Source of the DNA: Yuukianura sp. NJ FZ-2021 | Lineage: Eukaryota | Direction of reading: 5' to 3' | Assembly (NCBI GenBank): GCA_046563655.1 | Contig: CM102287.1 | Span: 558,001-622,000 of the forward strand | DNA: 64,000 nucleotides | In this document: piece by piece, positions 1-49,434 of the stretch | Numbering within the stretch: position 1 is the first letter of the stretch | Layout: each line of letters opens with the position of its first letter | Translations under genes and position numbers: made by a program | The notes under the pieces: generated by a model | The model's input: the letters and a program-made list of their open reading frames with translations, nothing else | Told to the model about the DNA's origin: nothing | The model's database searches: none

Positions 1-1
1 C

Positions 2-802
2 TGCTGAGGCTGGGATTTGAAAATCGTAAAGTAGATTTTTCGCATCTGAAAGCTGACACACAAATTCGACATATTCGTCGGAAACATTCCTTTGGTTTTC
101 GGCACATTCTCTCTTCACAGTCTCCCGCATTTGTCTTTGCCTGGGGCTGAGAGAGTTTAAGTATTTTTCGTATTCACTCTTATAATTCTGCAATAACTGC
201 TGGTATACTGATTCATCCCCTTTCATCTCTCTCACCACTTGTGCCAATTTGCAGAAATTAAACGGGTAATCCTGAAAATGCTGTTTATGAAATCTGACTG
301 ACCTAGGGGTTCGTGATCTAAAGCATGCTCCTGCGGAGACTTCTACCTTCAAAGTGTTTACGATTTCTATAAGGTCGTCAGCAGACAAAGCCTTAAAAAC
401 CTCTGCATCACACCTGAACCCACAGTGTAGGATTCTGAATAAGTCGATATGTCTAACGGGTGTGTGATCAATCGGTATCTGAGACATGTACCATCTCTTC
501 TCGTGAGATCCGTATTTTTGTTCCGTCTCGAACTGATCAGGGGGTACGAGGCTGAGTAATTCAAATTTTTCTATTACTGTATCCCAGTTGGCCATTGCCC
601 TATCGATCTCTGTTTCTACTAGTTCTACTACTCTTGGGTACCCTTGAACAGCTTCCTTGAACTTGGAGGCGTCCATTACGCACAGCTTTCTTATAATGCT
701 GATGAGTGGCAAATCACTCAGTGACGTAAGTTCTCTTTGGATCTGAAGATGGCTTTCCTTTGCCGGTCCGTGTTTGGACACTTCTGTGTTCTTCGAATCC
801 AT
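2..802 (-). CDS. ORF4 downstream of pol, at least 267 aa, truncated by the window edge; F-box-like N-terminal motif; function unknown
   Basis: Manual translation from the ATG at 802 meets no stop down to position 2: MDSKNTEVSKHGPAKESHLQIQRELTSLSDLPLISIIRKLCVMDASKFKEAVQGYPRVVELVETEIDRAMANW...QLSDAKNLLYDFQIPASA. It is absent from the ORF track, presumably because it has no stop in the window. Confidence 0.8.
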   Translation of the reverse strand, partial: MDSKNTEVSKHGPAKESHLQIQRELTSLSDLPLISIIRKLCVMDASKFKEAVQGYPRVVELVETEIDRAMANWDTVIEKFELLSLVPPDQFETEQKYGSHEKRWYMSQIPIDHTPVRHIDLFRILHCGFRCDAEVFKALSADDLIEIVNTLKVEVSAGACFRSRTPRSVRFHKQHFQDYPFNFCKLAQVVREMKGDESVYQQLLQNYKSEYEKYLNSLSPRQRQMRETVKRECAENQRNVSDEYVEFVCQLSDAKNLLYDFQIPASA

Positions 803-929
803 TGTTTTTCTCAATATCCTGACAAATTTTGTATATCTAAAATTTTTAGTCAATAAGCCTATGGTTTACAGGCCTACAGTTTATATTATCCAACAGCGCT
901 TGGACACGAAAGATCCAATGTGCAAGGCT

Positions 930-3900
930 TTAGTCTAGGAATCTAACTGGTTTTCGGACTACTCGGCCGTACCTTGTCGTAACTACATTTTTCTCTTCGA
1001 CTTTTACTTCTTTATCTTTTAACTCTGCTTGTCTAATCTCTTCATCTTCAGAAGATTCTAAGAACTCTTCAGATTCTACATCAGAGGATTCCACGTCCTC
1101 TTCCAATTCATCGGTTTCCAACTCATTGGGAACATCCGACTCCAACGGTATTTCAAAATTCAAAATATTCGTCAACTCATTTGAAACTGCTCTAGCATTA
1201 TCCTTGCTGATCGAAATTCCTTTCAACTCTTCGGCTAAGTCATCAGAATTTTCTTGGGTGGGTCTATTACAACCGTCTTCCCCAACTTGATCTGCCGCTA
1301 CTCCTGGAGCGGAAAGTCCCTCACAAATGTGAAGTAAATCATCTTCAACATAACGCTTCAAATTTTCAATATGTACTCTAACTGGGACATCATCCGAAGC
1401 CGCACCAACAGGTGAGCAATGATACGCTAAGGGTGAGACCTTCTGTACAACAACATATGGACCTTTATACCGCATGGCCAATTTCCGAGTTCGGCCAGCT
1501 TTGACAACTTTAACTTTAATGAGAACCTTATCTCCAATGTCATATTCCAACGGGAGACGTTTGGGATCGAACAAACCAGCTTGCTTTTTCTGTGCTTTTT
1601 GAATACCAACCCGAGCCAATTCTCTGGCCTCGTGCATTTTACGAATCCGTGATGGGATGTCTTCCCATTGTCGCGATGTATCCAACGCAACGTCAAGAGG
1701 ATGGAACGGATGGCGTCCATACATGATATAATAGCTGCTAAACCCCGTACTCTCTTTGTGAACCGCGGTATTTAGTGCAAAAACAGCAGAACCTAAATAC
1801 CGATCCCAGTCCCTTTGACTCTGCAGCACATAATTAGATAAAATTTCTTCGATACTACGGTTACTTCGTTCAACTAGTCCATTGGTACGACTATGATAAG
1901 GTGTGGAATACAAGTTCACAGTTCCAATCAAAGAATTGAACTGTTTAAAGAAAGATGATCGGAACGTACTAGCATTATCCGTCTGAATTGATTTAAACAC
2001 ACCATGTGTTTGGATAATATCCATCAAAAAGTCAAGCATAGCTTTGGTGTTATTCGCTTTGATTGCCTTGGCGAAAATGAATCTAGAGAGGTACTCCACC
2101 AGTACCACAATGAACCTATTTCCTGACTTACTAGTCGGAAGCGGACCTATTACATCGACAGACACACGCTCAAATAAATCTCCAACCGGAATTGGACACA
2201 ATTTTCCAATTGGTTTCGTATTTCTCGATCTCCTAAGCTGACAAGTTTTGCAAGACTTGACATAACGGGTAATCAATTTCTCCATCTTGAAGAAAAATAC
2301 ACTCTGACGAGCCCGTTCTAATGTCCTGGCGACACCCATGTGTCCCATCATGACGTTATCATGAAAATGAGGTAGGATGGTTGATACCCAGTGAGATGGA
2401 ATCACCGGTAATAAATTCTGACTTCTCGGGCATTTATATTTTAACATGTCGCCATCCAAACTAAACCTCTTACTAAACTTCCGATTGGATGACTTGAGCG
2501 ACATGATGATTCTCACCAACCGATCATCTAATTGCTGTCTCTCAGCTAATTTCTCTGTAAAATCAACTGGAACTATCAACTGTAAATTGTACCAACTATC
2601 TGGAAAATCATCAACAAACTCGGAATTATCTTCCACTGGAAACCTGGATAAACAATCGGCTTGGACATGTGTTTTTCCATTGACGTGTTTAATGACATAG
2701 TCAATGTCCTGAAGGCGTAAAGCCCACCTAGCCATTCGAGAATTACGTAGATTCCGACAAGTTTTTAAGTAACAAAGTGCATGATGGTCTACCACAATGG
2801 TAATTCCCTTGAATCCAATATATTCCCTATATTTTTCCAGTCCCCACACGACAGCTAAAAGTTCCTGTTCTGTCGTACTATAACGAGCTTCTGCTCCTCT
2901 GTATGTTCTGCTAGCATATGCAATGACATGAAGAGTTTCTCCCGGACTCCGTTGATTCAAAATTGCAGCAATACCTTTGTGAGATGCGTCTGTGTGTAAC
3001 TCAAGTTCAGCACTCTCGTTAAAGAAGGCCAAAATAGGTGCGGAAGTTAACTTCTGTCTTAAGGTGTTAAAAGCTTCGTTTTCCTCAGAACCCCATTTGA
3101 AGTTTGCATTCTTTTTCGTTAAATTCGTTAGAGGTTGGGCTATCTGACTGTAGTTCAAAATAAAACGTCGGTAGTAACCGGTCATGCCGAGAAATGTTCG
3201 AACTTCGCTAATATTTCTAGGAGGTGGCATTTCCACGATAGCTCTAACTTTATCTGGATTAACAGCAACTCCTTCTCCAGAAATAACATGTCCTAAAATT
3301 TCCAATTTTGTTTTTGCAAAATGGCATTTGGGCGGCTGTAACGTTAAATTGAAAGCTCTAAATTGTCGCAGCACTTCCTCTAGATTCTTAAGATGGCTTG
3401 CGAAATCTTTGGAGAAAACGCACACATCGTCTAAATAGGCAGTGCATATGGAATGAATTCTATTTCCCAAAACTGTTTTTATGTATGCACTAAAAGCTGC
3501 TGGTGCATTGGTGAGACCAAAACCCATGTATAAATATTCATATGTGCCTGAATGAGTCACGAAGCTTGTCTTTTCTACATCATCTGGATGGATGGGAAGT
3601 TGCATGTAACCACTCATTAAATCAATGCAGGAAAAATATCGTGCACCGTTAAATGAAGACAACAATTCACTTATTATGGCCATCGGCCAATTCACAGTCT
3701 TCGTCACGAAATTTAATCGACGCCAATCAACTACCATTCGATATTTATTACTATCTTTCTTTTTAACGAGAGAGACACCAGCCGACCACGGAGATCGGCT
3801 TTCTCGAATGATCCCTGCCTTCAATAAATTGTTTACCTCAGCATCAATGATCTCTTTCTCCGCCGGAGATTTCTTATAAGGAGGACAACTTATCGGAAGT

Positions 3901-5006
3901 GAATCTCCTGTGTCTATTCGAAACATTACATCTTTTGCTTTCCCTAACTGATCTAGATTCCAAGCAAAACAGTCACCATACCGAAGTAACAGTTCGCGTA
4001 ATTGTTTTTGTTCCTCTTCTGGTAAATCCTTGTTTATGTCAATTTGATCTATATTTTCCTTTGTAGACTGCATTCTCAATTCACGAATGTTTTCTTCCGA
4101 TTCAACTTCTCGAATATGAACTCTACAGATATTTCCCACGTTAACTCCTCGATATAATCGGACGGGATGTGGTCTAGGATTATCTACGGGTAGATCAAAT
4201 TCTCCCTCGGGAATATTGGCTAAATACGGAATACAAATTCCCAGTTTGTCCAGGGCCACGTTATTCGGCTCAAATGCTAAAGTCCCTTGAATGCGATGAA
4301 TGGGAAACACTTTAACTTTGGTTGTTGCAAACGGTGGCAAAATTACTTCATCGACAGTTAAAACCTTCGGTTGGGATGGCTCATGTCTAACAACTTGTGA
4401 ATCTTCAACTTTATACAACATATTGATATCGATCTCCAACGCCTTCTTAGTCAACAAACTGAAAGTTTGTGGCTGGGGCATGCTGTCATATTTAAATGAT
4501 CCATGGATTCCACCTGATCTGGTAAACTTCAAAGCTAGACTGTGATCATCATGGAAATCATTTCCCAGGATGACATCATAAAAGGCTTTTTCCACCACAT
4601 GAAACTTGTGAGTGACGAATTCCCCTTTCTTCCGAGAGAACGTGACATTTCTGACTACAGTTCCTAAAACGGGAAATTTCTCTTTGTTGGGCATGAGTAT
4701 CTTATGACCTGAGTCATCTTCCTCCAATTCGTCTCTACGAACGTTATTAATTCGGATAAAACTAATCCCTGCACCCGTGTCAATTAAGCAGGAACATTTC
4801 TTCAGATTTCCTTCTCTTTGCAGATAAATGGTAGTTATTAAATTGCCCTTATTCATCCCTGTACCGCAGTTCATTCTGTTATCATCAAATGAAACATTGG
4901 TAAGCAGTGAATAAACCGGAACAATTTCGACTTTGTTTGATTTTAGTGAAGGCTTTGCACTAGATTCGTCATCAGCCCTTCCTACTGATGCACTCTGGCG
5001 TTTCCC
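930..5006 (-). CDS. pol: Pol polyprotein (aspartic protease, RT, RNase H, integrase); frame stays open from the slippery site at 5006, first ATG at 4874
   Basis: Motifs: LIDTGA (PR); SPWSAGVSLVKKKD, YMGFGLTNAPAAF and YLDD (RT); ELHTDAS, TEQELLA and VVDHHAL (RH); HHCC, SVDVIG/QTDNA/GLVERSN and KGPY (INT). Acidic C-terminal tail. Confidence 0.97.
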   Translation of the reverse strand, partial: GKRQSASVGRADDESSAKPSLKSNKVEIVPVYSLLTNVSFDDNRMNCGTGMNKGNLITTIYLQREGNLKKCSCLIDTGAGISFIRINNVRRDELEEDDSGHKILMPNKEKFPVLGTVVRNVTFSRKKGEFVTHKFHVVEKAFYDVILGNDFHDDHSLALKFTRSGGIHGSFKYDSMPQPQTFSLLTKKALEIDINMLYKVEDSQVVRHEPSQPKVLTVDEVILPPFATTKVKVFPIHRIQGTLAFEPNNVALDKLGICIPYLANIPEGEFDLPVDNPRPHPVRLYRGVNVGNICRVHIREVESEENIRELRMQSTKENIDQIDINKDLPEEEQKQLRELLLRYGDCFAWNLDQLGKAKDVMFRIDTGDSLPISCPPYKKSPAEKEIIDAEVNNLLKAGIIRESRSPWSAGVSLVKKKDSNKYRMVVDWRRLNFVTKTVNWPMAIISELLSSFNGARYFSCIDLMSGYMQLPIHPDDVEKTSFVTHSGTYEYLYMGFGLTNAPAAFSAYIKTVLGNRIHSICTAYLDDVCVFSKDFASHLKNLEEVLRQFRAFNLTLQPPKCHFAKTKLEILGHVISGEGVAVNPDKVRAIVEMPPPRNISEVRTFLGMTGYYRRFILNYSQIAQPLTNLTKKNANFKWGSEENEAFNTLRQKLTSAPILAFFNESAELELHTDASHKGIAAILNQRSPGETLHVIAYASRTYRGAEARYSTTEQELLAVVWGLEKYREYIGFKGITIVVDHHALCYLKTCRNLRNSRMARWALRLQDIDYVIKHVNGKTHVQADCLSRFPVEDNSEFVDDFPDSWYNLQLIVPVDFTEKLAERQQLDDRLVRIIMSLKSSNRKFSKRFSLDGDMLKYKCPRSQNLLPVIPSHWVSTILPHFHDNVMMGHMGVARTLERARQSVFFFKMEKLITRYVKSCKTCQLRRSRNTKPIGKLCPIPVGDLFERVSVDVIGPLPTSKSGNRFIVVLVEYLSRFIFAKAIKANNTKAMLDFLMDIIQTHGVFKSIQTDNASTFRSSFFKQFNSLIGTVNLYSTPYHSRTNGLVERSNRSIEEILSNYVLQSQRDWDRYLGSAVFALNTAVHKESTGFSSYYIMYGRHPFHPLDVALDTSRQWEDIPSRIRKMHEARELARVGIQKAQKKQAGLFDPKRLPLEYDIGDKVLIKVKVVKAGRTRKLAMRYKGPYVVVQKVSPLAYHCSPVGAASDDVPVRVHIENLKRYVEDDLLHICEGLSAPGVAADQVGEDGCNRPTQENSDDLAEELKGISISKDNARAVSNELTNILNFEIPLESDVPNELETDELEEDVESSDVESEEFLESSEDEEIRQAELKDKEVKVEEKNVVTTRYGRVVRKPVRFLD
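4948..5006 (-). promoter_or_regulatory. Programmed -1 ribosomal frameshift signal: G_GGA_AAC plus a candidate pseudoknot
   Basis: Heptamer at 5006-5000 lies in the gag frame; pol is in the -1 frame with no stop between 5006 and 4874. Downstream stem CATCAG (4990-4985)/CTGATG (4975-4970); loop GAAGG (4981-4977) is complementary to CCTTC (4952-4948). Confidence 0.85.
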
Positions 5007-6532
5007 TGCGGTTGTGTGGTTTGCGTGGATGAGGTGGCAACTTGCTGTCGATTAGGGCATTGCATCATACGATGCGGCCCACCACAGTTCCAACAGGCAA
5101 GTGACATCACATACCCGCGACCTCGACCTCGGAAGTTGTTAGCTGGGAATCTAGGGCGTGGCCAAACATTTGCTTGCGCTGCCAAGCCTCCATAAACCTG
5201 ATTCACAGGTATGCGAGGGCCTTGACCTGGAATTGCCCTACCTCTATAACCATGGCCTGCCATTCCTCTGTAGCCTTTGAATTTTCCTCTCTGCTGATCC
5301 TGAACTTTCAGAGCTTTATCGAATTTCTTCATTGAATCTTTGAAAGAATCTTCTGGGTCACTGTCATTGCCTACTACTATGTTGTGTAACTGAGCAGTGA
5401 CCTTCCCAACGTCGCCGCTAGTCTTCTTTCTCTTCATCATGAACTCATAATTTTCCTTCTCAATCAAAAACTTCATAACGTCCTTTGACGTCTTCGGTTG
5501 CCTCAAGAAAATTTCCTGACTAACATCTGGTGTTAGTCCCTTCAAAAGAAAATTGACTCGTTTCTCCTCCTTCATAACCGTACCTTGACTTTTATCCAAT
5601 TGATCACACAAGCGACCAATTTTGCCACAATAATCCTCAACAGATTCTTTGGGTGCTCTTTTCATTTGAGTGAGTTTAAACTCAAGCTCCTCTTCCGTTA
5701 GACGAGAACGGAAATCAGTTTGGAAAGCTTCTTTCAGGTCTTTCCAAGTGACCTCAATGGGTTGCCCTGCCGCATCCTTATGGGCTGGGTCTCTTTCCCA
5801 ATCCGTCATGAAATTCAAAAACCATGTCTTTGCATATTTCCGGAGATACAACGGGAAATTCTTCACCTTAGTTGAAGAGTCCCAATGCTGGTTGGCTGCA
5901 ATGGCCTTGAACGTGCTCAAAAAGTTCGATGCCGGAAACCCACGTTTCCCTTCAAACAAAACATCCCCTGGGGGTGTCCACATCGATACAATCATGCTGG
6001 TCGGAGGTGGAGCTTGAACGACGCTCCCAGCGATAGCCGCGGTGCTACTTGCACCAGCTTGGGGTACAGCAACCTGCGCGGTAGAAGCCTGTGCCATACT
6101 AGTTGGATCGGCCATTGAACTTGACTCGCCCTCAGGAATTTTATTTGCCTCTGATTCGCTTTTAACCCTATCTCTCCGAGAAAGAATACTAGTTATGCTT
6201 TCTAAGGATACGTCAGCCTCCTGATCAGATCCTCCTGACTCTATAGATCGAAAAGTTTCGTCTGTGCCTGACGGTACTTCCTCGATATCAGAAGCGAGTT
6301 GTGAAATACTAACTTCAATAATCCCTGAATCGCTTGGTCTGGAAGTCTGAGGTAATGTACCTACCTCCGGTACCGCAACACCTGTAGACGAGCCTGGGGG
6401 TTGATCACCTTGATTTGGTGACTTCGACTTCCCTCTGGCTTGTTTCAAAACAATGGACAAATCGTGAACTCCAAATTCTGGTTCTTGTTGTTGTTTTCTA
6501 GTTCGCGGTGGACTTGAACCTCCTTCGCTCAT
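4982..6532 (-). CDS. gag: Gag, 516 aa
   Basis: Low-complexity N-terminus; capsid-like region (FLSTFKAIA...YAKTWF...TWKDLKEAF...ESVEDY); C-terminal zinc knuckle CWNCGGPHRMMQC; lies directly upstream of pol. Confidence 0.93.
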   Translation of the reverse strand: MSEGGSSPPRTRKQQQEPEFGVHDLSIVLKQARGKSKSPNQGDQPPGSSTGVAVPEVGTLPQTSRPSDSGIIEVSISQLASDIEEVPSGTDETFRSIESGGSDQEADVSLESITSILSRRDRVKSESEANKIPEGESSSMADPTSMAQASTAQVAVPQAGASSTAAIAGSVVQAPPPTSMIVSMWTPPGDVLFEGKRGFPASNFLSTFKAIAANQHWDSSTKVKNFPLYLRKYAKTWFLNFMTDWERDPAHKDAAGQPIEVTWKDLKEAFQTDFRSRLTEEELEFKLTQMKRAPKESVEDYCGKIGRLCDQLDKSQGTVMKEEKRVNFLLKGLTPDVSQEIFLRQPKTSKDVMKFLIEKENYEFMMKRKKTSGDVGKVTAQLHNIVVGNDSDPEDSFKDSMKKFDKALKVQDQQRGKFKGYRGMAGHGYRGRAIPGQGPRIPVNQVYGGLAAQANVWPRPRFPANNFRGRGRGYVMSLACWNCGGPHRMMQCPNRQQVATSSTQTTQPQGNARVHQ

Positions 6533-6662
6533 TCCACGTTAACTTTAGAATAAAACAAACCATATAAACTCCACCGGACTTGTTGTTTGCGTATCAATTT
6601 ATTTTTCCAGAAGTGTAAATAAATAAATGAATAAATAGGGGTTTCCACACTACTGGACTTTC

Positions 6663-8045
6663 TTAAGTACAAAACCAGCAAACTAGTACCACAACTATGA
6701 CTACAACAGTAGTGCTACCTAACGCTATCCCTGTTAATGGTAGGCCACCGATAGGTTCTGACACTACCAAAGCCTCAGCGGAATTGCATGGCAACTCCAA
6801 ATAGTCCATTAAGGGCTTCACGGAATGTAAGACCAAATTGGTGTCAAAATCTAAGATATGGCTACCATTATATGTGGTGTAGCCTTCCGGATGGATATCA
6901 ATTACGTTAAATGCCTGGGTGAGATTAGTAAGTTGGGGTAGCATGCCTTGTGAGTAGGTCCATTCTTGCAGGAATCTTTGATGTATATAGTACTGTTTCC
7001 AGCCGTTCTCTAACTGTAAATACAGTCGTTTTGGGGATGCCAATACACCGATAACTCTAGTTTCATTGATTCCTAGTTCTGTCATTGGTTTGGGATACCC
7101 GGGTGATAATGTTGCTGCGAACCCAAACTCCCAGAGTTGATCATCACCAATGAGAAATGTTTTCTCATAAAATCGGAAAATTAACTCAATTCCCATGTTC
7201 GGTGGGTAATGTTGAAAATAGTTGGCATTGAAAACTTTGTACGGAAAAGAGACTTTTCCCTTTGAAAGGCGATAATGGTAGTTGTCATTAAAAATGAAGA
7301 ACTCATTTCCCCACTTTAAAACATGTTCAAAATTCTCCTTACACATACTTTGTATCAAGTTATCCAAGGTAGGGGATGCGTCTCTCCTACCATGCGATAG
7401 ATTGCGACTGAATCTATAAAGATCACGTAAGGCATTTCTATCCCTTTTTCCAATAGACATGTTTTTGTCAATGAGATGATACATCGGATGCATCACTGAT
7501 CCTGGTACTTCAGAGTGTGATAAGCCTAGTGCATGCCCTATCTCGTGAACCATAACTGAAAATACATCTACCCCTATTCTACCAGGTGTGGTAGTCCAAT
7601 TTTCGGCTGCATCAAAATGAATGTCTCCGCCTAACCCAACATTCGGGTAGTAGGCGTGTGCTAGGATCCCTCCTACACCGTCAAAAACCATGACGTCGCC
7701 ATGATAGCCTTTTGCAAATTGAATTGAAATGTCAACAGTTTCATTGACTCTACGACTAAACGTAAAATTCGAAATCTCTTCCCATTTTTGAAAAGCAAAC
7801 TCAAAGTTCTCTATCAAATCTCGAAAATCCATCGTATTGGGAATGTCTCCTTTGACGTCCCAAGTTAAATTTGAAGTTTTCCACTTCCGATCCAAAATTT
7901 GTCTCCGTCTCCTCATCGGGTACTCCATCCCTTCGTGACAGCGGATGGTATCCTCGTTCTCGTAACTGAGAACGGTAGCCATTGTGGTTGTTGTACAGAT
8001 CAAGGTCATCACCCAAACCGAAATAAATCCTATCATCCTTGTCAT
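6663..8045 (-). CDS. Matrix metalloproteinase (M10A/matrixin), predicted membrane-anchored, intronless, 460 aa
   Basis: Hydrophobic N-terminal signal, RRRR furin-type site, KWKTSNLTW, HGD..FDGVGGILAHAYYP..GGDIHFD, zinc motif HEIGHALGLSHS, Met-turn SVMHP, Cys-bounded hemopexin-like region with GYPK, and hydrophobic C-terminus VVVIVVVLVCWFCT. Confidence 0.95.
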   Translation of the reverse strand: MTRMIGFISVWVMTLICTTTTMATVLSYENEDTIRCHEGMEYPMRRRRQILDRKWKTSNLTWDVKGDIPNTMDFRDLIENFEFAFQKWEEISNFTFSRRVNETVDISIQFAKGYHGDVMVFDGVGGILAHAYYPNVGLGGDIHFDAAENWTTTPGRIGVDVFSVMVHEIGHALGLSHSEVPGSVMHPMYHLIDKNMSIGKRDRNALRDLYRFSRNLSHGRRDASPTLDNLIQSMCKENFEHVLKWGNEFFIFNDNYHYRLSKGKVSFPYKVFNANYFQHYPPNMGIELIFRFYEKTFLIGDDQLWEFGFAATLSPGYPKPMTELGINETRVIGVLASPKRLYLQLENGWKQYYIHQRFLQEWTYSQGMLPQLTNLTQAFNVIDIHPEGYTTYNGSHILDFDTNLVLHSVKPLMDYLELPCNSAEALVVSEPIGGLPLTGIALGSTTVVVIVVVLVCWFCT

Positions 8046-8287
8046 TCTAAGAAGATAAATAAAAGGAATTTCAACAATTCCAGTTTCCTAACCTTAACGT
8101 CCAAGTTGTATAAGGTAGGTGACCCATAAATCTTCGGGTCAATCACCCCTCTAGTATTAGGGTCGGACCAGTTCCTCTCACAATCCCAAAACTTTAAAAT
8201 CTCTAATGCCCTCTTCCGGAGGCATGGGGTATACTCCAAAATAAAATTGACAACGAGCCTTAGGCTGCTGGCCCGGTCAGATGGCAT
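8042..8287 (-). CDS. Possible 81-aa upstream ORF whose stop overlaps the MMP start (ATGA)
   Basis: Listed in the ORF track; TGA at 8044-8042 overlaps ATG at 8045-8043. No recognisable motif, and its 3' end doubles as a polypyrimidine tract, so it may be non-coding. Confidence 0.25.
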   Translation of the reverse strand: MPSDRASSLRLVVNFILEYTPCLRKRALEILKFWDCERNWSDPNTRGVIDPKIYGSPTLYNLDVKVRKLELLKFLLFIFLE

Positions 8288-9106
8288 GGATTGTGAATTT
8301 CTGTTGAGCTTTCACAGCTCTATAAGCTTTCACAGCTTTCAAAAATATGAACAATGCCTTTACATTCTTCGGTAGTCCCTTGGGCCCTCTACTACCTTAG
8401 CCATCTTACTGAAGGAACATCCCTAACACCTACATCAATACCCTAACTATGATGGACCGCCCAGTTAAGGCGGGTCCACGCCCCTTCGGATCCATCGTGA
8501 TATCTCTAAGTGACCACTCCCCAATCTTGTTCCTACATACTAACCTGTCTCTCGGGAGGTCATGACTCCACCCTCACCAAGTTTTCTGATTATCCATGCC
8601 AAAAGGGCAGCTGCAGGGCAAAGCCACATACTACAGCCCGGTCAAAGTTTTCACCGTTTGCCAAGGTCATCGAATGACCCGACTGGTCCTTTTCACAAGG
8701 ATACAATACCAGTCCTTCCCGGATACGGAACTCAAGTTCTGTAATCACTTAAAGTCCTACTCCATTGGCCTATCCTAGCCCTTGGAGGGTCAATTGTCTA
8801 GTGACTAAAAGTCCTTAAAATTAGTTAACCGACCTAGAAGAAATCTAACCTAACTTATCGTTCCCTAAAAATAAATAACCTAGACAGAAAGGAAATTACT
8901 AGCCAACTATAACATCTCCTATTGTCCCTTTTGTGGACTGTTTCGTTGGGACAATCCTTTGGTCAGAACCGAAGTGGTACCTTTCTCACACCATACCTTC
9001 TACTATCTGAACAGAGGTGCCCATGACCCCTTCTACCTTCTACTGGACGAAATCCCTATTGTTCCAAAAACAAATCCTGAAGACAATAGCGACTTCCATG
9101 ACAACC

Positions 9107-9125
9107 AATCCTGTCACGGTCGCCA
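9107..9125 (-). promoter_or_regulatory. Primer-binding site complementary to the tRNA-Arg(TCG) 3' end
   Basis: Minus strand reads TGGCGACCGTGACAGGATT, 2 nt after the LTR-terminal CA. It matches the insect tRNA-Arg 3' end as I recall it (AATCCTGTCACGGTCG-CCA), the PBS type used by 412/mdg1-like elements. Confidence 0.9.
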
Positions 9126-9127
9126 GT

Positions 9128-10238
9128 TGAAACCTCTCCCATCTCTCACTCTAACTATCATCGTATCATCATCTAATCTACATTCTCCTACGCTATCAAT
9201 GGCGATAGAGAAATAATCAATCAATCTAACGATAATCCATAATCATAAATATCCAATAAAAAAAAGAGAAAGAACGGAATACCTATTCCTCATGAAGTTG
9301 CTCCCTAACTGATCTATGTTAGAACGATGACCTACTAGTCTAGCACTAGTCCTGGGGTTTCCTAAGTTCTTGGATTGGTTGGTGGAAGTCGGTAGGAATG
9401 AAAGTGAAAGTAGCTACACTTCAATGCTCTTTAAACATTTGTGGGCATAACCCAGCAGGAGGACCTGAGTACTTTTACTAGTAAAGTGCTGTGGCTTTAC
9501 ATACCTGAGGTTTTGGCCTGGCCTTGGCGCTACCCCTTACTGATGTTTGTATTGACCTCTCGACCTCTCCTTGGGTTGGCTGGAGACTTTGGTTGGTGGT
9601 GGCACTCCCGGGTTGACCCACGGTGGCTGGAGCGTCTCGTTGGAAGTTAGAAGTTGAAAGAAGTGAAGAAAAGAAATAGAAGTGAAAGTAGTTGCTTTTA
9701 ATTTAGACTTAAGGGCCAGGCTGGCCGAGTGCCTACTAGAAGTTAAGAGTTAAGTAAAAGCTACCGGACAACTGACCAAGAGGTCGGACTACCGATCCTC
9801 TATTTATCCCTAAAGATTAGACGATCTGAACATGCAAGAACATGATCTTCGAACTCATTAACTAATAAACATGTCAAATTAATCTACACTTTGTAACTAC
9901 AAAGTTTCAAAATCATCAAGTTTTCTAGTCTTTTTCTTATCTATGTTCTTACCAAAAAGACATAAACTTTGTCTTAGAATTTGAATTAGTAATGCTAACT
10001 AAGTGAAACTTAAGTCACGTCAGATTACTCATGACTTGACTTTTACTGTTGATTGCGAAAAGTCATAAACTTTTCGCAGTTGATAAGGGTGATCAGTCAG
10101 CACCCTGGGGTCGTCTCCCTCCTGATTAGGGAACACGCGAAAAAGGAATGAACTAATTCATTCCCTTCTCCTGTGCTCCAGTGAGAAATCTGCCAATCAA
10201 TACTTTAAAATTGATTGACAGCTTTCTCCACTGTTACA
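9128..10238 (-). repeat. 5' LTR, 1111 bp
   Basis: Minus-strand termini TGTAACAG...GGTTTCA; bounded by the PBS on one side and satellite sequence on the other. The partner LTR is not in the window. Confidence 0.88.
9697..9807 (-). promoter_or_regulatory. Candidate LTR core promoter and poly(A) signal
   Basis: Minus strand has a TATA-like ATAAATA (9807-9801), a TCAGTT initiator about 30 nt downstream (9775-9770), and ATTAAA (9702-9697). Confidence 0.55.
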
Positions 10239-13200
10239 ACATCAAAATCGAACATTCAGCATCATTTGTTATTTTGATTAAAATTTTTAGGAAATACTTT
10301 TTTATGTCATACTACCACCTTGCACTTCCAATAAAGCACACCTGAATAACTGGTGTTCAACAATAATCTGGAATTATATTTTAGCCCAACTCCACTATGC
10401 AACAAGTGCATAAATCTAACTGTCATTTTGGTATAAACTAATGTGGGAACTATACAACGAAGTTTTAAACATACTGAAAAATGGAATTTATGCCTTGTTA
10501 TCGCTTATAACCATCTTCATGGAACGCATCTAATAAAGGTCCACTTTGTCGTAGTGCATCAACGACTATTACACACGGTGAACCACTTGTTGTCAGCCTT
10601 CATCTTTGAGCACAAAGGAGAAGTGCCGGTGAAATGACAAGCTCGCCCTCACTACAGATACCTGCCAGTACTCATTTTGACACTACGAATCACAATGACT
10701 CCGACGGCAATGGAACTTCAGGGGATCCCATTATTACATTTTCTAAATCAAAATCGAACATTCAGCATTATTTGTTATTTTGATTAAAATTTTTAGGAAA
10801 TACTTTTTTATGTCATACTACCACCTTGCACTTCCAATAAAGCACACCTGAATAACTGGTGTTCAACAATAATCTGGAATTATATTTTAGCCCAACTCCA
10901 CTATGCAACAAGTGCATAAATCTAACTGTCATTTTGGTATAAACTAATGTGGGAACTATACAACGAAGTTTTAAACATACTGAAAAGTGGAATTTATGCC
11001 TTGTTATCGCTTATAACCATCTTCAAATAACGCATCTAATACCGGTCCACTTTGTCGTAGTGCATCAACGACTATTACACACGGTGAACCACTTGTTGTC
11101 AGCCTTCATTTTTGAGCACAAAGGAGAAGTGCCGGTGAAATGACAAGCTCGCCCTCACTACAGATACCAACCAGTACTCATTTTGACACGATGAATCACA
11201 ATGACTCCGACGGCAATGGAACTTCAGGGGATCCCATTATTACATTTTCTAAATCAAAATCGAACATTCTGCATTATTTGTTATTTTGAGTAAAATTGTT
11301 AGAAAAGACTTTTTAATGTCATACTACCACCTTGCACTTCCAATAAAGCACACCTGAATAACTGGTGTTCAACAATAATCTGGAATTATATTTTAGCCCA
11401 ACTCCACTATGCAACAAGTGCATAAATCTAACTGTCATTTTGGTATAAACTAATGTGGGAACTATACAACGAAGTTTTAAACATACTGAAAAATGGAATT
11501 TATGCCTTGTTATCGCTTATAACCATCTGCAAGGAACGCATCTAATACCGGTCCACTTTGTCGTAGTGCATCAACGACTATTACACACGGTGAACCACTT
11601 GTTGTCAGCCTTCATTTTTGAGCACAAAGGAGAAGTGCCGGTGAAATGACAAGCTCGCCCTCACTACAGATACCAACCAGTACTCATTTTGACACGATGA
11701 ATCACAATGACTCCGACGGCAATGGAACTTCAGGGGTTCCCATTATTACATTTTCTACATCAAAATCGAACATTCAGCATTATTTGTTATTTTGATTAAA
11801 ATTTTTAGGAAATACTTTTTTATGTCATACTACCACCTTGCACTTCCAATAAAGCACACCTGAATAACTGGTGTTCAACAATAATCTGGAATTATATTTT
11901 AGCCCAACTCCACTATGCAACAAGTGCATAAATCTAACTGTCATTTTGGTATAAACTAATGTGGGAACTATACAACGAAGTTTTAAACATACTGAAAAAT
12001 GGAATTTATGCCTTGTTATCGCTTATAACCATCTTCATGGAACGCATCTAATAAAGGTCCACTTTGTCGTGGTGCATCAACGACTATTACACACGGTGAA
12101 CCACTTGTTGTCAGCCTTAATTTTTGAGCACAAAGGAGAAGTGCCGGTGAAATGACAAGCTCGCAGTCACTACAGTTACCAACCAGTACTCATTTTGACA
12201 CTACGAATCACAATGACTCCGACGGCAATGGAACTTCAGGGGATCCCATTATTACATTTTCTAAATCAAAATCGAACATTCAGCATTATTTGTTATTTTG
12301 ATTAAAATTGTTTGAAAAGACTTTTTTGTCATACTACCACCTTGCACTTCCAATAAAGCACACCTGAATAACTGGTGTTCAACAATAATCTGGAATTATA
12401 TTTTAGCCCAACTCCACTATGCAACAAGTGCATAAATCTAACTGTCATTTTGGTATAAACTAATGTGGGAACTATACAACGAAGTTTTAAACATACTGAA
12501 AAGTGGAATTTATGCCTTGTTATCGCTTATAACCATCTTCAAATAACGCATCTAATACCGGTCCACTTTGTCGTAGTGCATCAACGACTATTACACACGG
12601 TGAACCACTTGTTGTCAGCCTTCATCTTTGAGCACAAAGGAGAAGTGCCGGTGAAATGACAAGCTCTCCCTCACTACAGATACCAACCAGTACTCATTTT
12701 GACACGATGAATCACAATGACTCCGACGGCAATGGAACTTCAGGGGATCCCATTATTACATTTTCTAAATCAAAATCGAACATTCTGCATTATTTGTTAT
12801 TTTGAGTAAAATTGTTAGAAAAGACTTTTTAATGTCATACTACCACCTTGCACTTCCAATAAAGCACACCTGAATAACTGGTGTTCAACAATAATCTGGA
12901 ATTATATTTTAGCCCAACTCCACTATGCAACAAGTGCATAAATCTAACTGTCATTTTGGTATAAACTAATGTGGGAACTATACAACGAAGTTTTAAACAT
13001 ACTGAAAAATGGAATTTATGCCTTGTTATCGCTTATAACCATCTGCAAGGAACGCATCTAATACCGGTCCACTTTGTCGTAGTGCATCAACGACTATTAC
13101 ACACGGTGAACCACTTGTTGTCAGCCTTCATTTTTGAGCACAAAGGAGAAGTGCCGGTGAAATGACAAGCTCGCCCTCACTACAGATACCAACCAGTACT

Positions 13201-16200
13201 CATTTTGACACGATGAATCACAATGACTCCGACGGCAATGGAACTTCAGGGGTTCCCATTATTACATTTTCTACATCAAAATCGAACATTCAGCATTATT
13301 TGTTATTTTGATTAAAATTTTTAGGAAATACTTTTTTATGTCATACTACCACCTTGCACTTCCAATAAAGCACACCTGAATAACTGGTGTTCAACAATAA
13401 TCTGGAATTATATTTTAGCCCAACTCCACTATGCAACAAGTGCATAAATCTAACTGTCATTTTGGTATAAACTAATGTGGGAACTATACAACGAAGTTTT
13501 AAACATACTGAAAAATGGAATTTATGCCTTGTTATCGCTTATAACCATCTTCATGGAACGCATCTAATAAAGGTCCACTTTGTCGTAGTGCATCAACGAC
13601 TATTACACACGGTGAACCACTTGTTGTCAGCCTTCATCTTTGAGCACAAAGGAGAAGTGCCGGTGAAATGACAAGCTCGCCCTCACTACAGATACCTGCC
13701 AGTACTCATTTTGACACTACGAATCACAATGACTCCGACGGCAATGGAACTTCAGGGGATCCCATTATTACATTTTCTAAATCAAAATCGAACATTCAGC
13801 ATTATTTGTTATTTTTATTAAAATTTTTAGGAAATACTTTTTTATGTCATACTACCACCTTGCACTTCCAATAAAGCACACCTGAATAACTGGTGTTCAA
13901 CAATAATCTGGAATTATATTTTAGCCCAACTCCACTATGCAACAAGTGCATAAATCTAACTGTCATTTTGGTATAAACTAATGTGGGAACTATACAACGA
14001 AGTTTTAAACATACTGAAAAGTGGAATTTATGCCTTGTTATCGCTTATAACCATCTGCAAGGAACGCATCTAATACCGGTCCACTTTGTCGTAGTGCATC
14101 AACGACTATTACACACGGTGAACCACTTGTTGTCAGCCTTCATTTTTGAGCACAAAGGAGAAGTGCCGGTGAAATGACAAGCTCGCCCTCACTACAGATA
14201 CCAACCAGTACTCATTTTGACACGATGAATCACAATGACTCCGACGGCAATGGAACTTCAGGGGATCCCATTATTACATTTTCTAAATCAAAATCGAACA
14301 TTCAGCATTATTTGTTATTTTTATTAAAATTTTTAGGAAATACTTTTTTATGTCATACTACCACCTTGCACTTCCAATAAAGCACACCTGAATAACTGGT
14401 GTTCAACAATAATCTGGAATTATATTTTAGCCCAACTCCACTATGCAACAAGTGCATAAATCTAACTGTCATTTTGGTATAAACTAATGTGGGAACTATA
14501 CAACGAAGTTTTAAACATACTGAAAAATGGAATTTATGCCTTGTTATCGCTTATAACCATCTGCAAGGAACGCATCTAATACCGGTCCACTTTGTCGTAG
14601 TGCATCAACGACTATTACACACGGTGAACCACTTGTTGTCAGCCTTCATTTTTGAGCACAAAGGAGAAGTGCCGGTGAAATGACAAGCTCGCCCTCACTA
14701 CAGATACCAACCAGTACTCATTTTGACACGATGAATCACAATGACTCCGACGGCAATGGAACTTCAGGGGTTCCCATTATTACATTTTCTACATCAAAAT
14801 CGAACATTCAGCATTATTTGTTATTTTGATTAAAATTTTTAGGAAATACTTTTTTATGTCATACTACCACCTTGCACTTCCAATAAAGCACACCTGAATA
14901 ACTGGTGTTCAACAATAATCTGGAATTATATTTTAGCCCAACTCCACTATGCAACAAGTGCATAAATCTAACTGTCATTTTGGTATAAACTAATGTGGGA
15001 ACTATACAACGAAGTTTTAAACATACTGAAAAATGGAATTTATGCCTTGTTATCGCTTATAACCATCTTCATGGAACGCATCTAATAAAGGTCCACTTTG
15101 TCGTAGTGCATCAACGACTATTACACACGGTGAACCACTTGTTGTCAGCCTTAATTTTTGAGCACAAAGGAGAAGTGCCGGTGAAATGACAAGCTCGCCC
15201 TCACTACAGTTACCAACCAGTACTCATTTTGACACTACGAATCACAATGACTCCGACGGCAATGGAACTTCAGGGGATCCCATTATTACATTTTCTAAAT
15301 CAAAATCGAACATTCAGCATTATTTGTTATTTTGATTAAAATTGTTTGAAAAGACTTTTTTGTCATACTACCACCTTGCACTTCCAATAAAGCACACCTG
15401 AATAACTGGTGTTCAACAATAATCTGGAATTATATTTTAGCCCAACTCCACTATGCAACAAGTGCATAAATCTAACTGTCATTTTGGTATAAACTAATGT
15501 GGGAACTATACAACGAAGTTTTAAACATACTGAAAAGTGGAATTTATGCCTTGTTATCGCTTATAACCATCTTCAAATAACGCATCTAATACCGGTCCAC
15601 TTTGTCGTAGTGCATCAACGACTATTACACACGGTGAACCACTTGTTGTCAGCCTTCATCTTTGAGCACAAAGGAGAAGTGCCGGTGAAATGACAAGCTC
15701 TCCCTCACTACAGATACCAACCAGTACTCATTTTGACACGATGAATCACAATGACTCCGACGGCAATGGAACTTCAGGGGTTCCCATTATTTCATTTTCT
15801 ACATCAAAATCGAACATTCAGCATTATTTGTTATTTTGATTAAAATTTTTAGGAAATACTTTTTTATGTCATACTACCACCTTGCACTTCCAATAAAGCA
15901 CACCTGAATAACTGGTGTTCAACAATAATCTGGAATTATATTTTAGCCCAACTCCACTATGCAACAAGTGCATAAATCTAACTGTCATTTTGGTATAAAC
16001 TAATGTGGGAACTATACAACGAAGTTTTAAACATACTGAAAAGTGGACTTTATGCCTTGTTATCGCTTATAACCATCCTCAAGTAACGCATCTAATACCG
16101 GTCCACTTTGTCGTAGTGCATCAACGACTATTACACACGGTGAACCACTTGTTGTCAGCCTTCATCTTTGAGCACAAAGGAGAAGTGCCGGTGAAATGAC

Positions 16201-16534
16201 AAGCTCGCCCTCACTACAGATACCTGCCAGTACTCATTTTGACACTACGAATCACAATGACTCCGACGGCAATGGAACTTCAGGGGATCCCATTATTACA
16301 TTTTCTAAATCAAAATCGAACATTCAGCATTATTTGTTATTTTGATTAAAATTTTTAGGAAATACTTTTTTATGTCATACTACCACCTTGCACTTCCAAT
16401 AAAGCACACCTGAATAACTGGTGTTCAACAATAATCTGGAATTATATTTTAGCCCAACTCCACTATGCAACAAGTGCATAAATCTAACTGTCATTTTGGT
16501 ATAAACTAATGTGGGAACTATACAACGAAGTTTT
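10239..16534. repeat. Satellite A (506-bp monomer, 504-bp variant), left block
   Basis: Near-identical head-to-tail units; the ORF-track starts recur every 506 or 504 bp. Confidence 0.99.
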
Positions 16535-16557
16535 TATCAGGAAATCTGATTCCCTCA

Positions 16558-16596
16558 TGCGTGAGGCCACGGGTTCGATTCCCGTCTGAGCCCCCA
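16558..16596 (+). other. DNA copy of a tRNA 3' half (positions 38-76 including CCA), tRNA-Pro-like; extended PBS
   Basis: T-GCGTG-AGGCC-ACGGG-TTCGATT-CCCGT-CTGAGCC-C-CCA parses as anticodon 3' stem, variable loop, perfect T arm, acceptor strand and CCA. The ending GAGCCCCCA is as in tRNA-Pro. No 5' half is present. Confidence 0.8.
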
Positions 16597-16598
16597 GT

Positions 16599-17954
16599 TG
16601 TAAGGATACGAATTTTCCAGTGGCCAATTAAGGGCTACAAATCCGGCTCTAATCTGAAACCCGCCCTTTCCGTTCGCTATCCCTTACGTTTACTTGACGG
16701 GCCCTTAGTAGTTTCACCTTAAGAAAGGGTTTCTTCTTTCTTAAGGGCCGATAGAAGGCACTTCACACTCCAGAAGGGTCAATAACCTGAGAATTTGCAC
16801 GTAGATTTGGCCTCTCTCCTCGCAGTCCAATGACCTCGACCTCTGACCTTTGACTTTTGACTTTCAACAAAGAAAATGACAACTCGACTCGTGAAACCGT
16901 TAACCAATCAGAAAGCTCTCCAGTTAATCAATCTTAATTGCTAAATGACTGAAAACTCCAATTAGTGACTCGTTAATTTAAATTGAATTTGAAATGATTG
17001 AAAGAAATTGAGAAATTCCAGAAGTCAGCTGATTCGAAGATAAATAAACGTAAACACGAATAACCTTTGACCCAATTGAGTGTGTGAGCAAAACAGAGTT
17101 CAAATACCAGAGACAATCCTAATTAGAAAACCCGCGTACGCGTGCGCGGCGTTAATTGATTGAATTAATTGGGAAAAACCGATAAAAGCTGAATCAAACT
17201 GAGAAAAACCGATTAAAACTGATTTAAATTGATGGAAAACTGATTTAAAACAATTACAAGTTAATGCGCGTTGAATGAAACAAAAAGGAAATGGAATTAC
17301 GCGCAGTTCCCGTCACTGAAGGTGAACAAAAGAACAGAAAACCGAAAACGCGAAAGAAAACGTGAAAACTTTAACGACGAAAACTTTAACGACGAAAGAA
17401 TTTAACGTGAAAACTTTAAGTGGTTCTCCGGATCACCCCGAGCAACCAAACCCTCGGCAGTATGCTGGAAGCCAGCAACACCCTGCCAATACCTGTAGTG
17501 GTCCCCGGTCGTCCTTCAAGCATCAATTCAGCAGCGTTTCCCCCTGGTTTACTGTGTACTGGAAAAGGCATGCATGGCAGTGGAAAGTCAGGCTAAGGTC
17601 TACTTTCTAGGCCAAAATGCATGCTTGTCCATACACAATGAACCATTAATTAAGGTAGTTTAGGTAGTTGATAGGTAACGGAACTTTAGTGATTTGAGTA
17701 GTTTAGGATTTTAGGTAATTTTTAGGATATTTTAGTTTTAGGTAATTAGCGTTAATTAGTTGGATAATTAGTTTTTAAGTTTTGTCTATCTGTTTGCTTG
17801 GAAAAGTACTGGGTGCTGCGGCGGTAAAGTGCGGGAACAGTTTTGGTTTAAATTTGAGTGAAATCTTTCCAGAGGTTTCACTCAAATTCTCACTAGATGG
17901 CGTATGCCGTCCAGGGCTCTTTGTGAAGTGACGCTCTGTTTTTGTGCTCTCACA
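16599..17954 (-). repeat. Single LTR of a second family, 1356 bp
   Basis: Minus-strand termini TGTGAG...CTTACA, with a PPT immediately upstream and a 2-nt spacer plus PBS/tRNA copy immediately downstream. Confidence 0.78.
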
Positions 17955-17955
17955 A

Positions 17956-17967
17956 CTTCCCCCCTCC
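17956..17967 (-). promoter_or_regulatory. Polypurine tract
   Basis: Minus strand GGAGGGGGGAAG, 1 nt before TGTGAG. Confidence 0.8.
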
Positions 17968-18208
17968 AATTGGCCCGAAAGTCATCGTGTTGAGAAATAT
18001 TATTTAGCAGACTCTAATACTATTTACAAAGTAACTGTGACTCTAAATTGTTTGGAAAAATTTAAGTAATTCGTACTTAGAACTGAATTTATAATTGAAT
18101 AAATTGAAAAACTTGAAGAATCCTCTTGAGTACTAACTTAGAAGGCAAGGAAACAAGATAGAATTAACTGGAAAACAATGACAATTAAGTGGAAAGGAAA
18201 CGGCGTCT

Positions 18209-18868
18209 TCAGTCGTCTTGATCCGAATCCTTGAACCCAAATTTCTCTTTCTTCATCATCCGAATTTTGGAATTGATTCTGAAGTTGTCCCTTCCCTCTT
18301 TCTCCAGTACTTCCAAACCCTCAAATTGAGTCGGCTCCTCGATTCCACGGTTGAGTGCAGGATGAAGAAAGACGCTGATTCCATCGTCGAAGTTCCACTT
18401 CTCCAGAAGATCATCATCTCCAACGTCGACTCGGGAAAGTTTTGGACGTCGTCTGGGAGTCTCAGCCTGGGTCATCCCCTTCTCCTTCTTGATTTTCACC
18501 CATGGAATGATTGGGGCCACTTCTGGAACTTCTAGGCGAGTGATCGGGGCTTCTGGGCGAGTGATCGGTTCTTCTGGACGAGTGATGGTGGCTTCTGGGC
18601 GAGTGATAGTGGCCTCTGGCTTCTTCTTTGGAGGAGACTTGGAAGTTCTTGGAACCGTCATTGGAACTGGAAGGTCGGCTGAAGTAATGGTAGATGATGG
18701 AATCTGCTTCACCGGAACTGACAACTTGGACTGAACTGTCTTTGAGTTTTTGGCCGTGGTCAACTTGAGGGGCTGAGCAAAGAGGTCGAACTGTGGAGGA
18801 CTTGGAGAACGACATCGAGCTTTCTTGGCAATCTGCCTCCGTTCCAGTGCTGCCTTCTGCTTCGCCAT
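18209..18868 (-). CDS. 219-aa basic, Pro-rich ORF with 7-aa tandem repeats, upstream of the PPT; function unknown
   Basis: Listed in the ORF track; repeats TRPEATI/TRPEATI/TRPEEPI/TRPEAPI come from 21-bp units; K/R clusters. Confidence 0.55.
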   Translation of the reverse strand: MAKQKAALERRQIAKKARCRSPSPPQFDLFAQPLKLTTAKNSKTVQSKLSVPVKQIPSSTITSADLPVPMTVPRTSKSPPKKKPEATITRPEATITRPEEPITRPEAPITRLEVPEVAPIIPWVKIKKEKGMTQAETPRRRPKLSRVDVGDDDLLEKWNFDDGISVFLHPALNRGIEEPTQFEGLEVLEKEGRDNFRINSKIRMMKKEKFGFKDSDQDD

Positions 18869-18889
18869 TTGAGCTGTGGCTGATTCCCT

Positions 18890-40286: not shown

Positions 40287-40290
40287 TAAA

Positions 40291-40307
40291 TGGCCCTTCG
40301 ACCGGAT
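40291..40307 (+). promoter_or_regulatory. tRNA-Tyr-like PBS
   Basis: TGGCCCTTCGACCGGAT, 4 nt after the LTR; close to the tRNA-Tyr PBS TGGTCCTTCGAGCCGGAT common in BEL/Pao elements (1 substitution, 1 deletion). Confidence 0.75.
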
Positions 40308-45548: not shown

Positions 45549-45549
45549 C

Positions 45550-49426: not shown

Positions 49427-49434
49427 AGGGAATA
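49427..49434 (+). promoter_or_regulatory. Short PPT-like tract
   Basis: AGGGAATA directly before the 3' LTR. Confidence 0.5.

Follow-up and report, generated by a model that had tools for sequence, protein, structure and literature searches.

Long terminal repeat (LTR) retrotransposons with accessory genes have been described in animals and in plants. Previous studies showed that Gypsy elements with an envelope gene occur widely among animals (PMC13524379), that planarian elements of the Burro/GYPSM1 type carry BIR, BCL2-like, MATH_TRAF_C, ankyrin and other motifs, with an upstream accessory open reading frame (ORF) encoding MATH_TRAF_C in a Burro-like element of Dugesia tigrina (PMC6431247), and that the ORF3s of the bdelloid rotifer elements Vesta and Juno encode a GDSL esterase or a DEDDy exonuclease with intact catalytic residues (PMC5408684). 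In rice, Retrosat2 has an ORF0 (PMC3485330). Matrix metalloproteinases (MMPs) are carried by insect DNA viruses, and that of a granulovirus was proposed to degrade the basement membrane and aid systemic infection (PMC4500397). Here we describe an MMP gene inside a retrotransposon of Yuukianura sp. NJ FZ-2021. The stretch analyzed, called the window at its full length of 64,000 nt, comprises positions 558,001 to 622,000 of the forward strand of contig CM102287.1 (assembly GCA_046563655.1). The minus strand of its first 10.2 kb bears four collinear ORFs in the order MMP, gag, pol and a post-pol frame designated orfX, and together with the adjoining LTR these form an apparently intact Ty3/Gypsy LTR retrotransposon, as far as the window shows.

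As in Burro/GYPSM1 and Vesta/Juno, the element is an invertebrate Gypsy-like one with added non-canonical ORFs or domains. However, the cargoes named for those elements in the accessible text include no metalloproteinase (PMC5408684 was not searched for that term), and they are intracellular regulators or nucleic-acid enzymes, whereas the MMP is a secreted, membrane-anchored extracellular enzyme. The extra ORFs of the bdelloid elements come after pol, while the MMP comes before gag. The string 'metalloprote' had no occurrence in the survey of metazoan GAG-POL-ENV elements (PMC13524379) or in the planarian study (PMC6431247), and no MMP-bearing retroelement was found in the searchable literature, a coverage outside which lie Repbase, Dfam, subscription journals and bioRxiv supplements. 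A preliminary description of the locus, made from the letters without database searches, had likewise known of no MMP-bearing LTR family, and the searchable literature agrees. LTR elements with accessory genes are a known kind, but the extracellular matrix protease is an unprecedented cargo, and its position before gag is unusual.

Two further groups invite comparison. The MMPs of insect DNA viruses (the mp-nase of betabaculoviruses and those of nudivirus, ascovirus, entomopoxvirus and iridovirus) likewise place an MMP fold on a mobile or infectious element of animals, and viral MMPs were the top structural matches in a viral library (E 8e-24 to 1e-20). They sit, however, on DNA viruses of at least 100 kb, whereas the MMP here belongs to a retroelement, lies upstream of gag and has a furin site and a C-terminal anchor. 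In sequence it is less identical to the viral MMPs (15-22% over full-length matches) than to human MMPs (18-27% full-length, 36-40% over the catalytic domains). Errantiviruses and other Gypsy elements with an envelope, on the other hand, share with the element the Gypsy type and an extra gene whose product is a surface protein with glycosylation, a furin cleavage site and a membrane anchor, probably expressed from a spliced subgenomic RNA, and the idea common to both would be an accessory gene letting the element leave the producing cell (PMC13524379). The errantivirus env is a fusogen located after pol, whereas the MMP is a protease located before gag and without fusion machinery, and no envelope-like gene of the errantivirus type was seen after pol within the window.

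The explanation of the whole locus that we favor on balance is a multi-copy Gypsy element, present in a 506-bp satellite, whose standard set is MMP, gag, pol and orfX and whose MMP is under selection. The MMP gene is intact and intronless and lies between the primer-binding site (PBS) and gag on the same strand, where the preliminary description had placed it. The parts of the element are as follows:

9128-10240, minus strand: 5' LTR of ~1.11 kb, starting with TG and ending with CA (boundary +/-2 nt)
9107-9125, minus strand: PBS-like sequence, starting with TGG two bases past the terminal CA of the LTR
8046-9106, minus strand: leader of 1061 nt, containing 18 upstream ATGs
6663-8045, minus strand: MMP gene, 460 aa with an ATG start (ORF and Pfam Peptidase_M10)
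6533-6662, minus strand: AT-rich spacer of 130 nt between MMP and gag, with AATAAA at 6603 and a G/T-rich stretch after it
4982-6532, minus strand: gag of 516 aa, whose product has a capsid domain and, close to its C-terminus, a Cys-His knuckle
930-5051, minus strand: pol frame, open from 5051, with the first ATG at 4874 and 1314 aa from that ATG
2-802, minus strand: orfX, post-pol, at least 267 aa, with the frame open from 865 and continuing past the window start

The MMP is a complete matrixin, from signal peptide to C-terminal anchor, and is probably an active enzyme. Peptidase_M10 matched residues 54-210 (Pfam, E 6.5e-47). In an alignment of 56 sequences, i.e., the query and 55 MMPs, all 18 invariant columns are retained in the query, among them H167, E168, G170, H171, G174 and H177 of the zinc motif HEIGHALGLSHS (HExxHxxGxxH form), the Met-turn M185, and H115, D117, H130, H143 and D145 of the structural site. 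The best matches among PDB sequences were full-length MMP-2 (1e-38) and MMP-12 (4.7e-38), whose alignments cover the structural zinc/calcium block residue by residue, the zinc motif, the Met-turn and the first hemopexin blades. The AlphaFold2 model has a mean predicted local distance difference test (pLDDT) score of 78.6, mostly above 90 in the catalytic domain (50-210), and contains an N-terminal helix, four beta-blades at 241-411 and a terminal helix at 444-459. In Foldseek it matched full-length MMP-13, MMP-1 and MMP-12 (E ~1e-28 to 1e-27, 374-386 columns), and its catalytic domain superposes on those of MMP-12, -8 and -13 with a root-mean-square deviation of 1.0-1.6 Å and a target template-modeling (TM) score of 0.86-0.94. 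The hemopexin-like domain (~235-420) is bracketed by C235, which falls on the near-invariant column of the conserved first hemopexin cysteine, and by C420 at the domain end; the Pfam hemopexin match at 294-327 was just below the cut-off (21.0 bits vs 21.3).

The remaining parts of the protein would suit a surface enzyme of the secretory pathway. The N-terminus is hydrophobic, with a signal peptide at ~1-23, the furin motif RRRR stands at residues 44-47 immediately ahead of the catalytic domain (~50-210), which a linker joins to the hemopexin-like domain, nine N-x-S/T sequons are present, and the hydrophobic C-terminus (432-460, ~29 residues) reaches the last residue and leaves no cytoplasmic tail. 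The signal peptide, RRRR site, zinc motif, Met-turn, hemopexin-like region and hydrophobic tail named in the preliminary description are all present where it had placed them. The propeptide is minimal: the usual prodomain of ~80 aa is missing, with PG_binding_1 not detected by Pfam, and residues 24-46 are disordered in the model (pLDDT <50). R35-C36 fall on the near-invariant R-C columns of the PRCGxPD cysteine switch, while the remaining switch residues are changed.

The order of signal peptide, furin motif, catalytic domain, hemopexin domain and anchor is the same as in the membrane-type MMPs (MT-MMPs; MMP14/15/16/24) and the glycosylphosphatidylinositol (GPI)-anchored MMP17/25. MT-MMPs of fishes and mammals were among the best full-length matches, with 29-32% identity over ~62% of the query, and PF11857, the MT-MMP C-terminal domain, is present on them. 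Unlike MT-MMPs, the MMP of the element has no PG_binding-type prodomain, no PF11857 in the Pfam scan and no cytoplasmic tail, and it is intronless and lies inside a transposon. Because PF11857 and the cytoplasmic tail are both missing, a GPI signal or a tail-less helix would be as likely as a true membrane-type anchor. The MT-loop insertion also seems to be absent, since the catalytic domain has ~9 fewer residues than that of MMP-14 (158 vs 167). Moreover, the MMP did not group with the MT-MMP clade in a tree of MMPs, although its branch is too long for any placement. The furin motif fits the earlier label 'membrane-type', but the lack of PF11857 and of a cytoplasmic tail does not.

Public sequencing data were used for judging whether the gene belongs to the family or to this copy only. 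The element stretch was contained in only three runs (X1, X2 and X3), all of DNA and all from one sample of one study, which is probably the source of the window's assembly. Contigs of these runs were aligned to window bases 1-10400 at a likeness of at least 80%, and k-mer depth was summed per bin. In X1 the depth was 396-1357 for MMP, 474-868 for gag, 432-723 for pol, 443 for orfX and 838-2092 for the LTR; X2 and X3 repeated this pattern. The depth of MMP was equal to or above that of gag and pol in the three runs, and that of the LTR was two to four times the internal depth. The contigs over the element were short (a few hundred bases), with many variants and 80-99% identity. The 810 pieces of X1 comprised 336 at >=99% identity, 258 at 95-99%, 157 at 90-95% and 59 below 90%. 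Between the window and the most abundant contigs the difference is 1-3%, and at several sites no depth supports the letter of the window, as expected for one copy among many. At the LTR edge (10238-10241) contigs run out into unlike flanks (agreement 0.59), which points to several insertion sites. The element is a dispersed multi-copy family in this sample.

Diverged copies of the MMP itself were found as well. One contig of 347 nt with 11 differences had a depth of 427, another of 398 nt with 76 differences (~81% identity) had a depth of 337, and a third of 985 nt had 49 differences and 6 gaps. Joints that skip the MMP numbered zero among the 15 listed of 19. In the light of these data, a chimeric assembly or a nested insertion found in the window's copy alone is hardly credible as the origin of the arrangement. 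Such an artefact could find some room in the spacer between MMP and gag, which none of the contigs listed spans and where reads are cut at 6612-6641, and in the position of the 3' LTR outside the window. However, depth is continuous over both junctions, in all 30 bins and three runs and at the level of the family, and the leader and the 5' part of the MMP are more abundant than pol. The borders of the MMP show no poly(A) tail (flanking direct repeats were not searched for), and it does not stand out from the other genes of the element in composition or codon use: the GC content at third codon positions is 0.415, the same as in gag, and the correlation of codon use with gag and pol is 0.57-0.62.

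The depth profile also contains a local rise. Window positions 7635-8675, i.e., the 5' third of the MMP with the adjoining leader, were covered two to three times as deeply as gag and pol in each of the three runs (977-1357 vs ~480 in X1, 97-159 vs 20-40 in X3). The excess may come from a sister subfamily, or from further derivatives that are partial or non-autonomous, with only this segment in common.

For selection, each listed ORF variant was classed as synonymous or non-synonymous and compared with the expectation for random changes, the rows being those chosen by the tool as 'best supported'. The 16 listed variants of MMP included 10 synonymous and 6 non-synonymous changes, where 24% synonymous would be expected (binomial p 0.0013; ratio of non-synonymous to synonymous substitution rates, dN/dS, ~0.19). 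Listed variants in pol were 7 synonymous to 5 non-synonymous (expected 25%, p 0.014, dN/dS ~0.24) and those in orfX 7 to 2 (expected 24%, p 0.0009, dN/dS ~0.09), so that the bias in MMP points the same way as in the other two ORFs. Synonymous bias among transposon copies reflects selection on lineages that are still transposing and is the classical argument for a needed gene. Because inserted copies decay neutrally, purifying selection among copies implies, by this established reasoning, that the protease helps the element to replicate. Given the family-level depth, the diverged variants, the differing flanks and the synonymous excess, the MMP looks like a selected, standing component of a multi-copy family, within the limits of one sample. 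The preliminary description had taken the MMP as cargo that is kept; a depth at or above that of gag and pol, the diverged variants and the 10 synonymous changes in 16 speak for a cargo of the family and against an accident of one copy.

The same data bear on the possibility that the MMP is a neutral passenger, transduced once into a master copy and carried through a recent burst without use to the element. The capture of oncogenes by acute transforming retroviruses is a sense-oriented gene transduction of the same kind as that in maize Bs1. In Bs1, as is likely for the element here, a processed cellular coding sequence lies in sense orientation within the transcription unit of a retroelement, and many captured genes have been described in sorghum, so that LTR retrotransposons do transduce host genes (PMC7264820). 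Moreover, the abundance of contigs only 1-3% from the window means that part of the family may be young. However, captures of the Bs1 and transforming-retrovirus type usually leave the element defective and the cargo fragmentary or recent, whereas here gag and pol are intact and the MMP is old, diverged and apparently selected. The skew of the listed MMP variants would not be expected of a passenger, and the variant at ~81% identity indicates that the gene outlived the divergence of subfamilies, with its frame still open here. In addition, the very long branch of the MMP in the tree speaks for a gene that has resided in the element for a long time, and over such a period a 460-codon ORF without a use should have been broken. 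We therefore regard a neutral passenger as distinctly unlikely.

It could also be proposed that the family serves the host, i.e., that the host uses LTR-driven MMP copies, with selection at the level of the host and the element as a mere vehicle, because purifying selection alone does not name its beneficiary. Selection by the host, however, would target one or a few loci and not a dispersed family. Furthermore, pol and orfX share the synonymous bias, and gag, pol and orfX share the depth of the MMP, as for one replicating unit. We consider this explanation very unlikely. The copy in the window sits in satellite DNA among other retroelements, which is neutral as to a use by the host.

The MMP has no near relative among known proteins. 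A HMMER profile search of 1.84 billion representative proteins returned 7783 matrixins, none with more than 48% identity, and the top scores were those of tandem-MMP proteins. In a word-indexed search of 5.8 billion proteins the best match had 40% identity over 30% of the query, and animal MT-MMPs and collagenases had ~30% identity over ~60% of it. None of 13 top or long MMP matches scanned with Pfam carries gag or reverse transcriptase, and the searches of metagenome contigs and of viral contigs each gave zero confirmed loci for the MMP. A tree with known MMPs, as suggested in the preliminary description, was built from 42 sequences; the query stayed unplaced, its long branch (end branch 2.42 vs a median of 0.42) was drawn to a bacterial sequence, and the donor could not be named. 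The long branch fits a long residence in an error-prone replicon.

A capture of the MMP from a host is nevertheless likely, as judged from its sequence, and the animal-type architecture together with the lack of introns fits the capture of a processed host mRNA. The earlier proposal of a captured host MMP agrees with this architecture and with the nearest sequences, which are animal MMPs with 30-40% identity and thus closer than the viral ones, but the tree gives it no support.

The other genes of the element are of the usual Gypsy type. The gag product matched Retrotrans_gag (2.9e-12) and Ty3_capsid (2.2e-8), and pol matched RVT_1 (1.8e-22), RT_RNaseH (1.3e-30), Integrase_H2C2 (3e-16) and rve (6.1e-5), with two RNase H models matching. 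The domain order in pol is that of Gypsy elements, with D-T-G near residue 33, RVT_1 at 370-531, RNase H at 594-723, the integrase zinc domain at 825-883 and the core at 903-994, followed by an acidic C-terminal tail. The closest database relatives of pol are Gypsy-type pol proteins, those of a pseudoscorpion and of ticks among them, which are only ~40% identical; pol in metagenome contigs gave zero confirmed loci. The family itself is thus missing from the databases. The acidic tail holds most of the non-synonymous pol variants listed, and both X1 and X2 have seven contigs that diverge from the window within this tail at 1277 and seven that do so at 1310. It seems to be a region variable among copies and possibly rich in indels.

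The post-pol frame, orfX, is probably a second accessory gene of the element, since it is covered at the depth of the element and synonymous changes make up 7 of the 9 variants listed for it. Its 267 visible residues have neither a signal peptide nor a hydrophobic segment. Pfam gave nothing above the cut-off (TSNAXIP1_N was sub-threshold, 22.6 bits vs a cut-off of 27), the protein search gave no homologue, and the best score in Atlas was 0.77. Outside the coding part, the outer edge of the 5' LTR adjoins the 506-bp satellite, which begins at 10241, and a motif scan of the LTR found a TATA-like ATAAATA at 9807 and ATTAAA at 9702. No second LTR lies within the window; the 3' LTR, the polypurine tract, the target-site duplication and the end of orfX fall beyond base 1. 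The 64-kb window contains no second copy of MMP, gag, pol or LTR and no tRNA genes, and a scan of the element with Rfam gave only two sub-threshold chance matches.

The arrangement of the 5' part of the element raises the question of how the MMP could be expressed. Downstream of the TATA-like box at 9807, 29 ATGs precede that of the MMP, which makes cap scanning to the MMP ATG unlikely. A splice-site motif scan with fixed thresholds over 3.8 kb from the LTR to gag gave two donor-like and two acceptor-like sites in total. The sites relevant to expression are the following:

9504, minus strand: donor-like CAG/GTATGT in the LTR (motif scan; the slash marks the junction)
8544, minus strand: donor-like CAG/GTTAGT in the leader (motif scan)
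8047, minus strand: predicted intron end of an acceptor-like site with 13 pyrimidines in 15 positions and then TAG, one base before the MMP ATG
8042-8287, minus strand: upstream ORF of 81 codons, whose TGA stop overlaps the MMP start (ATGA)
5000-5006, minus strand: heptamer GGGAAAC, read as G GGA AAC in gag and lying in the gag/pol overlap

At a density of 2 per 3.8 kb, an acceptor-like site would fall 15 nt or less from any chosen point in ~1% of cases, the test being a post hoc one. The spacer contains a weaker site, a pyrimidine tract plus AG 13 nt before the gag ATG, as well as the AATAAA at 6603, and both are compatible with chance; ~0.15 poly(A)-type signals are expected by chance in its 130 nt. 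The 81-codon upstream ORF has no family match in Pfam and may be due to chance or form a termination-reinitiation arrangement. With regard to pol, its frame is -1 relative to gag with an overlap of 66 nt. X XXY YYZ is the canonical form of a slippery heptamer, and the GGGAAAC in the overlap has this form and is a candidate -1 ribosomal frameshift site.

From these features the following course of events may be proposed. An ancestor of the element would have acquired a processed, intronless MMP mRNA between the PBS and gag, and the gene would then have diverged far from known MMPs. The MMP could be translated from a spliced subgenomic mRNA, in which the donor at 9504 or that at 8544 is joined to the acceptor ending one base ahead of the ATG; such a splice would remove up to 29 upstream AUGs and make the MMP AUG the first. 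Use of the donor at 9504 would also excise the PBS, much like in retroviral env mRNAs, and the mRNA may terminate at the AATAAA at 6603. Gag-pol would be made from unspliced or alternatively spliced RNA by a -1 frameshift at GGGAAAC. The signal peptide should direct the MMP into the secretory pathway, where its nine sequons may be N-glycosylated, and furin-type cleavage at RRRR could remove the minimal propeptide and activate the enzyme. The C-terminal hydrophobic anchor, whether a GPI signal or a tail-less helix, would keep the MMP on the outer face of the membrane. There, on cells or on particles, it could cut the basement membrane or pericellular matrix or shed surface proteins, and matrix cutting would help particles or expressing cells to reach new cells, e.g., those of the germline.

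Such a function as a spread factor, by which matrix cutting or shedding helps the element to reach new cells, is suggested by analogy with the viral MMPs and is put forward here only tentatively. The fuller proposal, in which an envelope-less family recruited an anchored MMP as an infectivity or tissue-invasion factor, with expression like that of a spliced env and a fusogen-free route to the germline that converges with the MMPs of insect DNA viruses, rests on the same analogies and is rather doubtful.

A different use of the enzyme is also conceivable. The MMP might remodel the surface of the host cell, where it would shed or process proteins (immune receptors, adhesion molecules or a host fusogen, for example), or might be the sole surface glycoprotein and replace an envelope in entry. 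Animal membrane-anchored MMPs are known sheddases, and the signal peptide, the furin site, the nine sequons and the C-terminal anchor resemble the parts of a viral glycoprotein. Moreover, no envelope-like gene is seen in the window, and the visible part of orfX has no feature or family match that would make it one. On the other hand, neither a fusion peptide nor a coiled-coil region is apparent in the MMP, the model is that of an ordinary MMP fold, and an envelope gene could still lie beyond the window start. We regard such a role in surface remodeling or entry as unlikely.

Several points weigh against the favored explanation, that of a selected MMP in the standard set of a multi-copy element. 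The evidence on copies comes from one sample and one genome, probably the assembly's own source. Summed contig depth is not copy number, and the depths were compared within the element, without a single-copy baseline. The contig and variant results represent 23 of ~1900 pieces and 41 of ~1100 variant rows, and for the latter reason the synonymous and non-synonymous counts are small and tool-selected. Among the contigs listed none bridges the PBS, MMP and gag, reads being cut in the low-complexity part of the spacer. The window ends before the 3' LTR, the duplicated target site and the last part of orfX are reached, which limits any judgment on the age and completeness of the copy. Host origin is no more than likely, since identity to any relative is at most 48% and the query is unplaced in the tree. 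The readings of promoter, splice sites and poly(A) signal are post hoc interpretations of motifs only. Finally, latency control may differ from that of other MMPs, because the cysteine switch is degenerate, with only R-C kept, and the prodomain of ~80 aa is missing.

The rest of the window consists largely of other repeats. The 506-bp satellite array occupies 10241-16534 and 19244-39853, with monomers 96-100% alike, and its depth in X1 was ~380,000, roughly 800 times that of the element. The array is broken at 16535-19243 by a non-satellite insert of 2.7 kb, which has an open frame of 227 codons (18209-18892, minus strand) without a Pfam match. A second, unrelated LTR element lies on the plus strand at 39854-49867; its LTRs of 433 bp are 99.8% identical, and it has a gag with Ty3_capsid at 44283-45548 and a protease-like remnant but no intact reverse transcriptase. 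Between its 5' LTR and gag there are ~4 kb without a long ORF, and no similarity to the MMP was seen. Another tandem repeat with a period near 410 bp extends from ~49.9 kb to at least 50.8 kb and, judged by uniform composition, may fill the last 14 kb of the window.

LTR retrotransposons must reach the germline in order to persist. To our knowledge, the envelope fusogen is the only accessory function known so far that helps them to cross between cells. If the present explanation is true, a selected extracellular matrix protease in a complete Gypsy element would be a second and mechanistically different spread factor, parallel to the use of MMPs by large insect DNA viruses. It would also provide a naturally occurring MMP whose propeptide is minimal, and add to the host genes known to be open to domestication by retroelements for purposes of their own.

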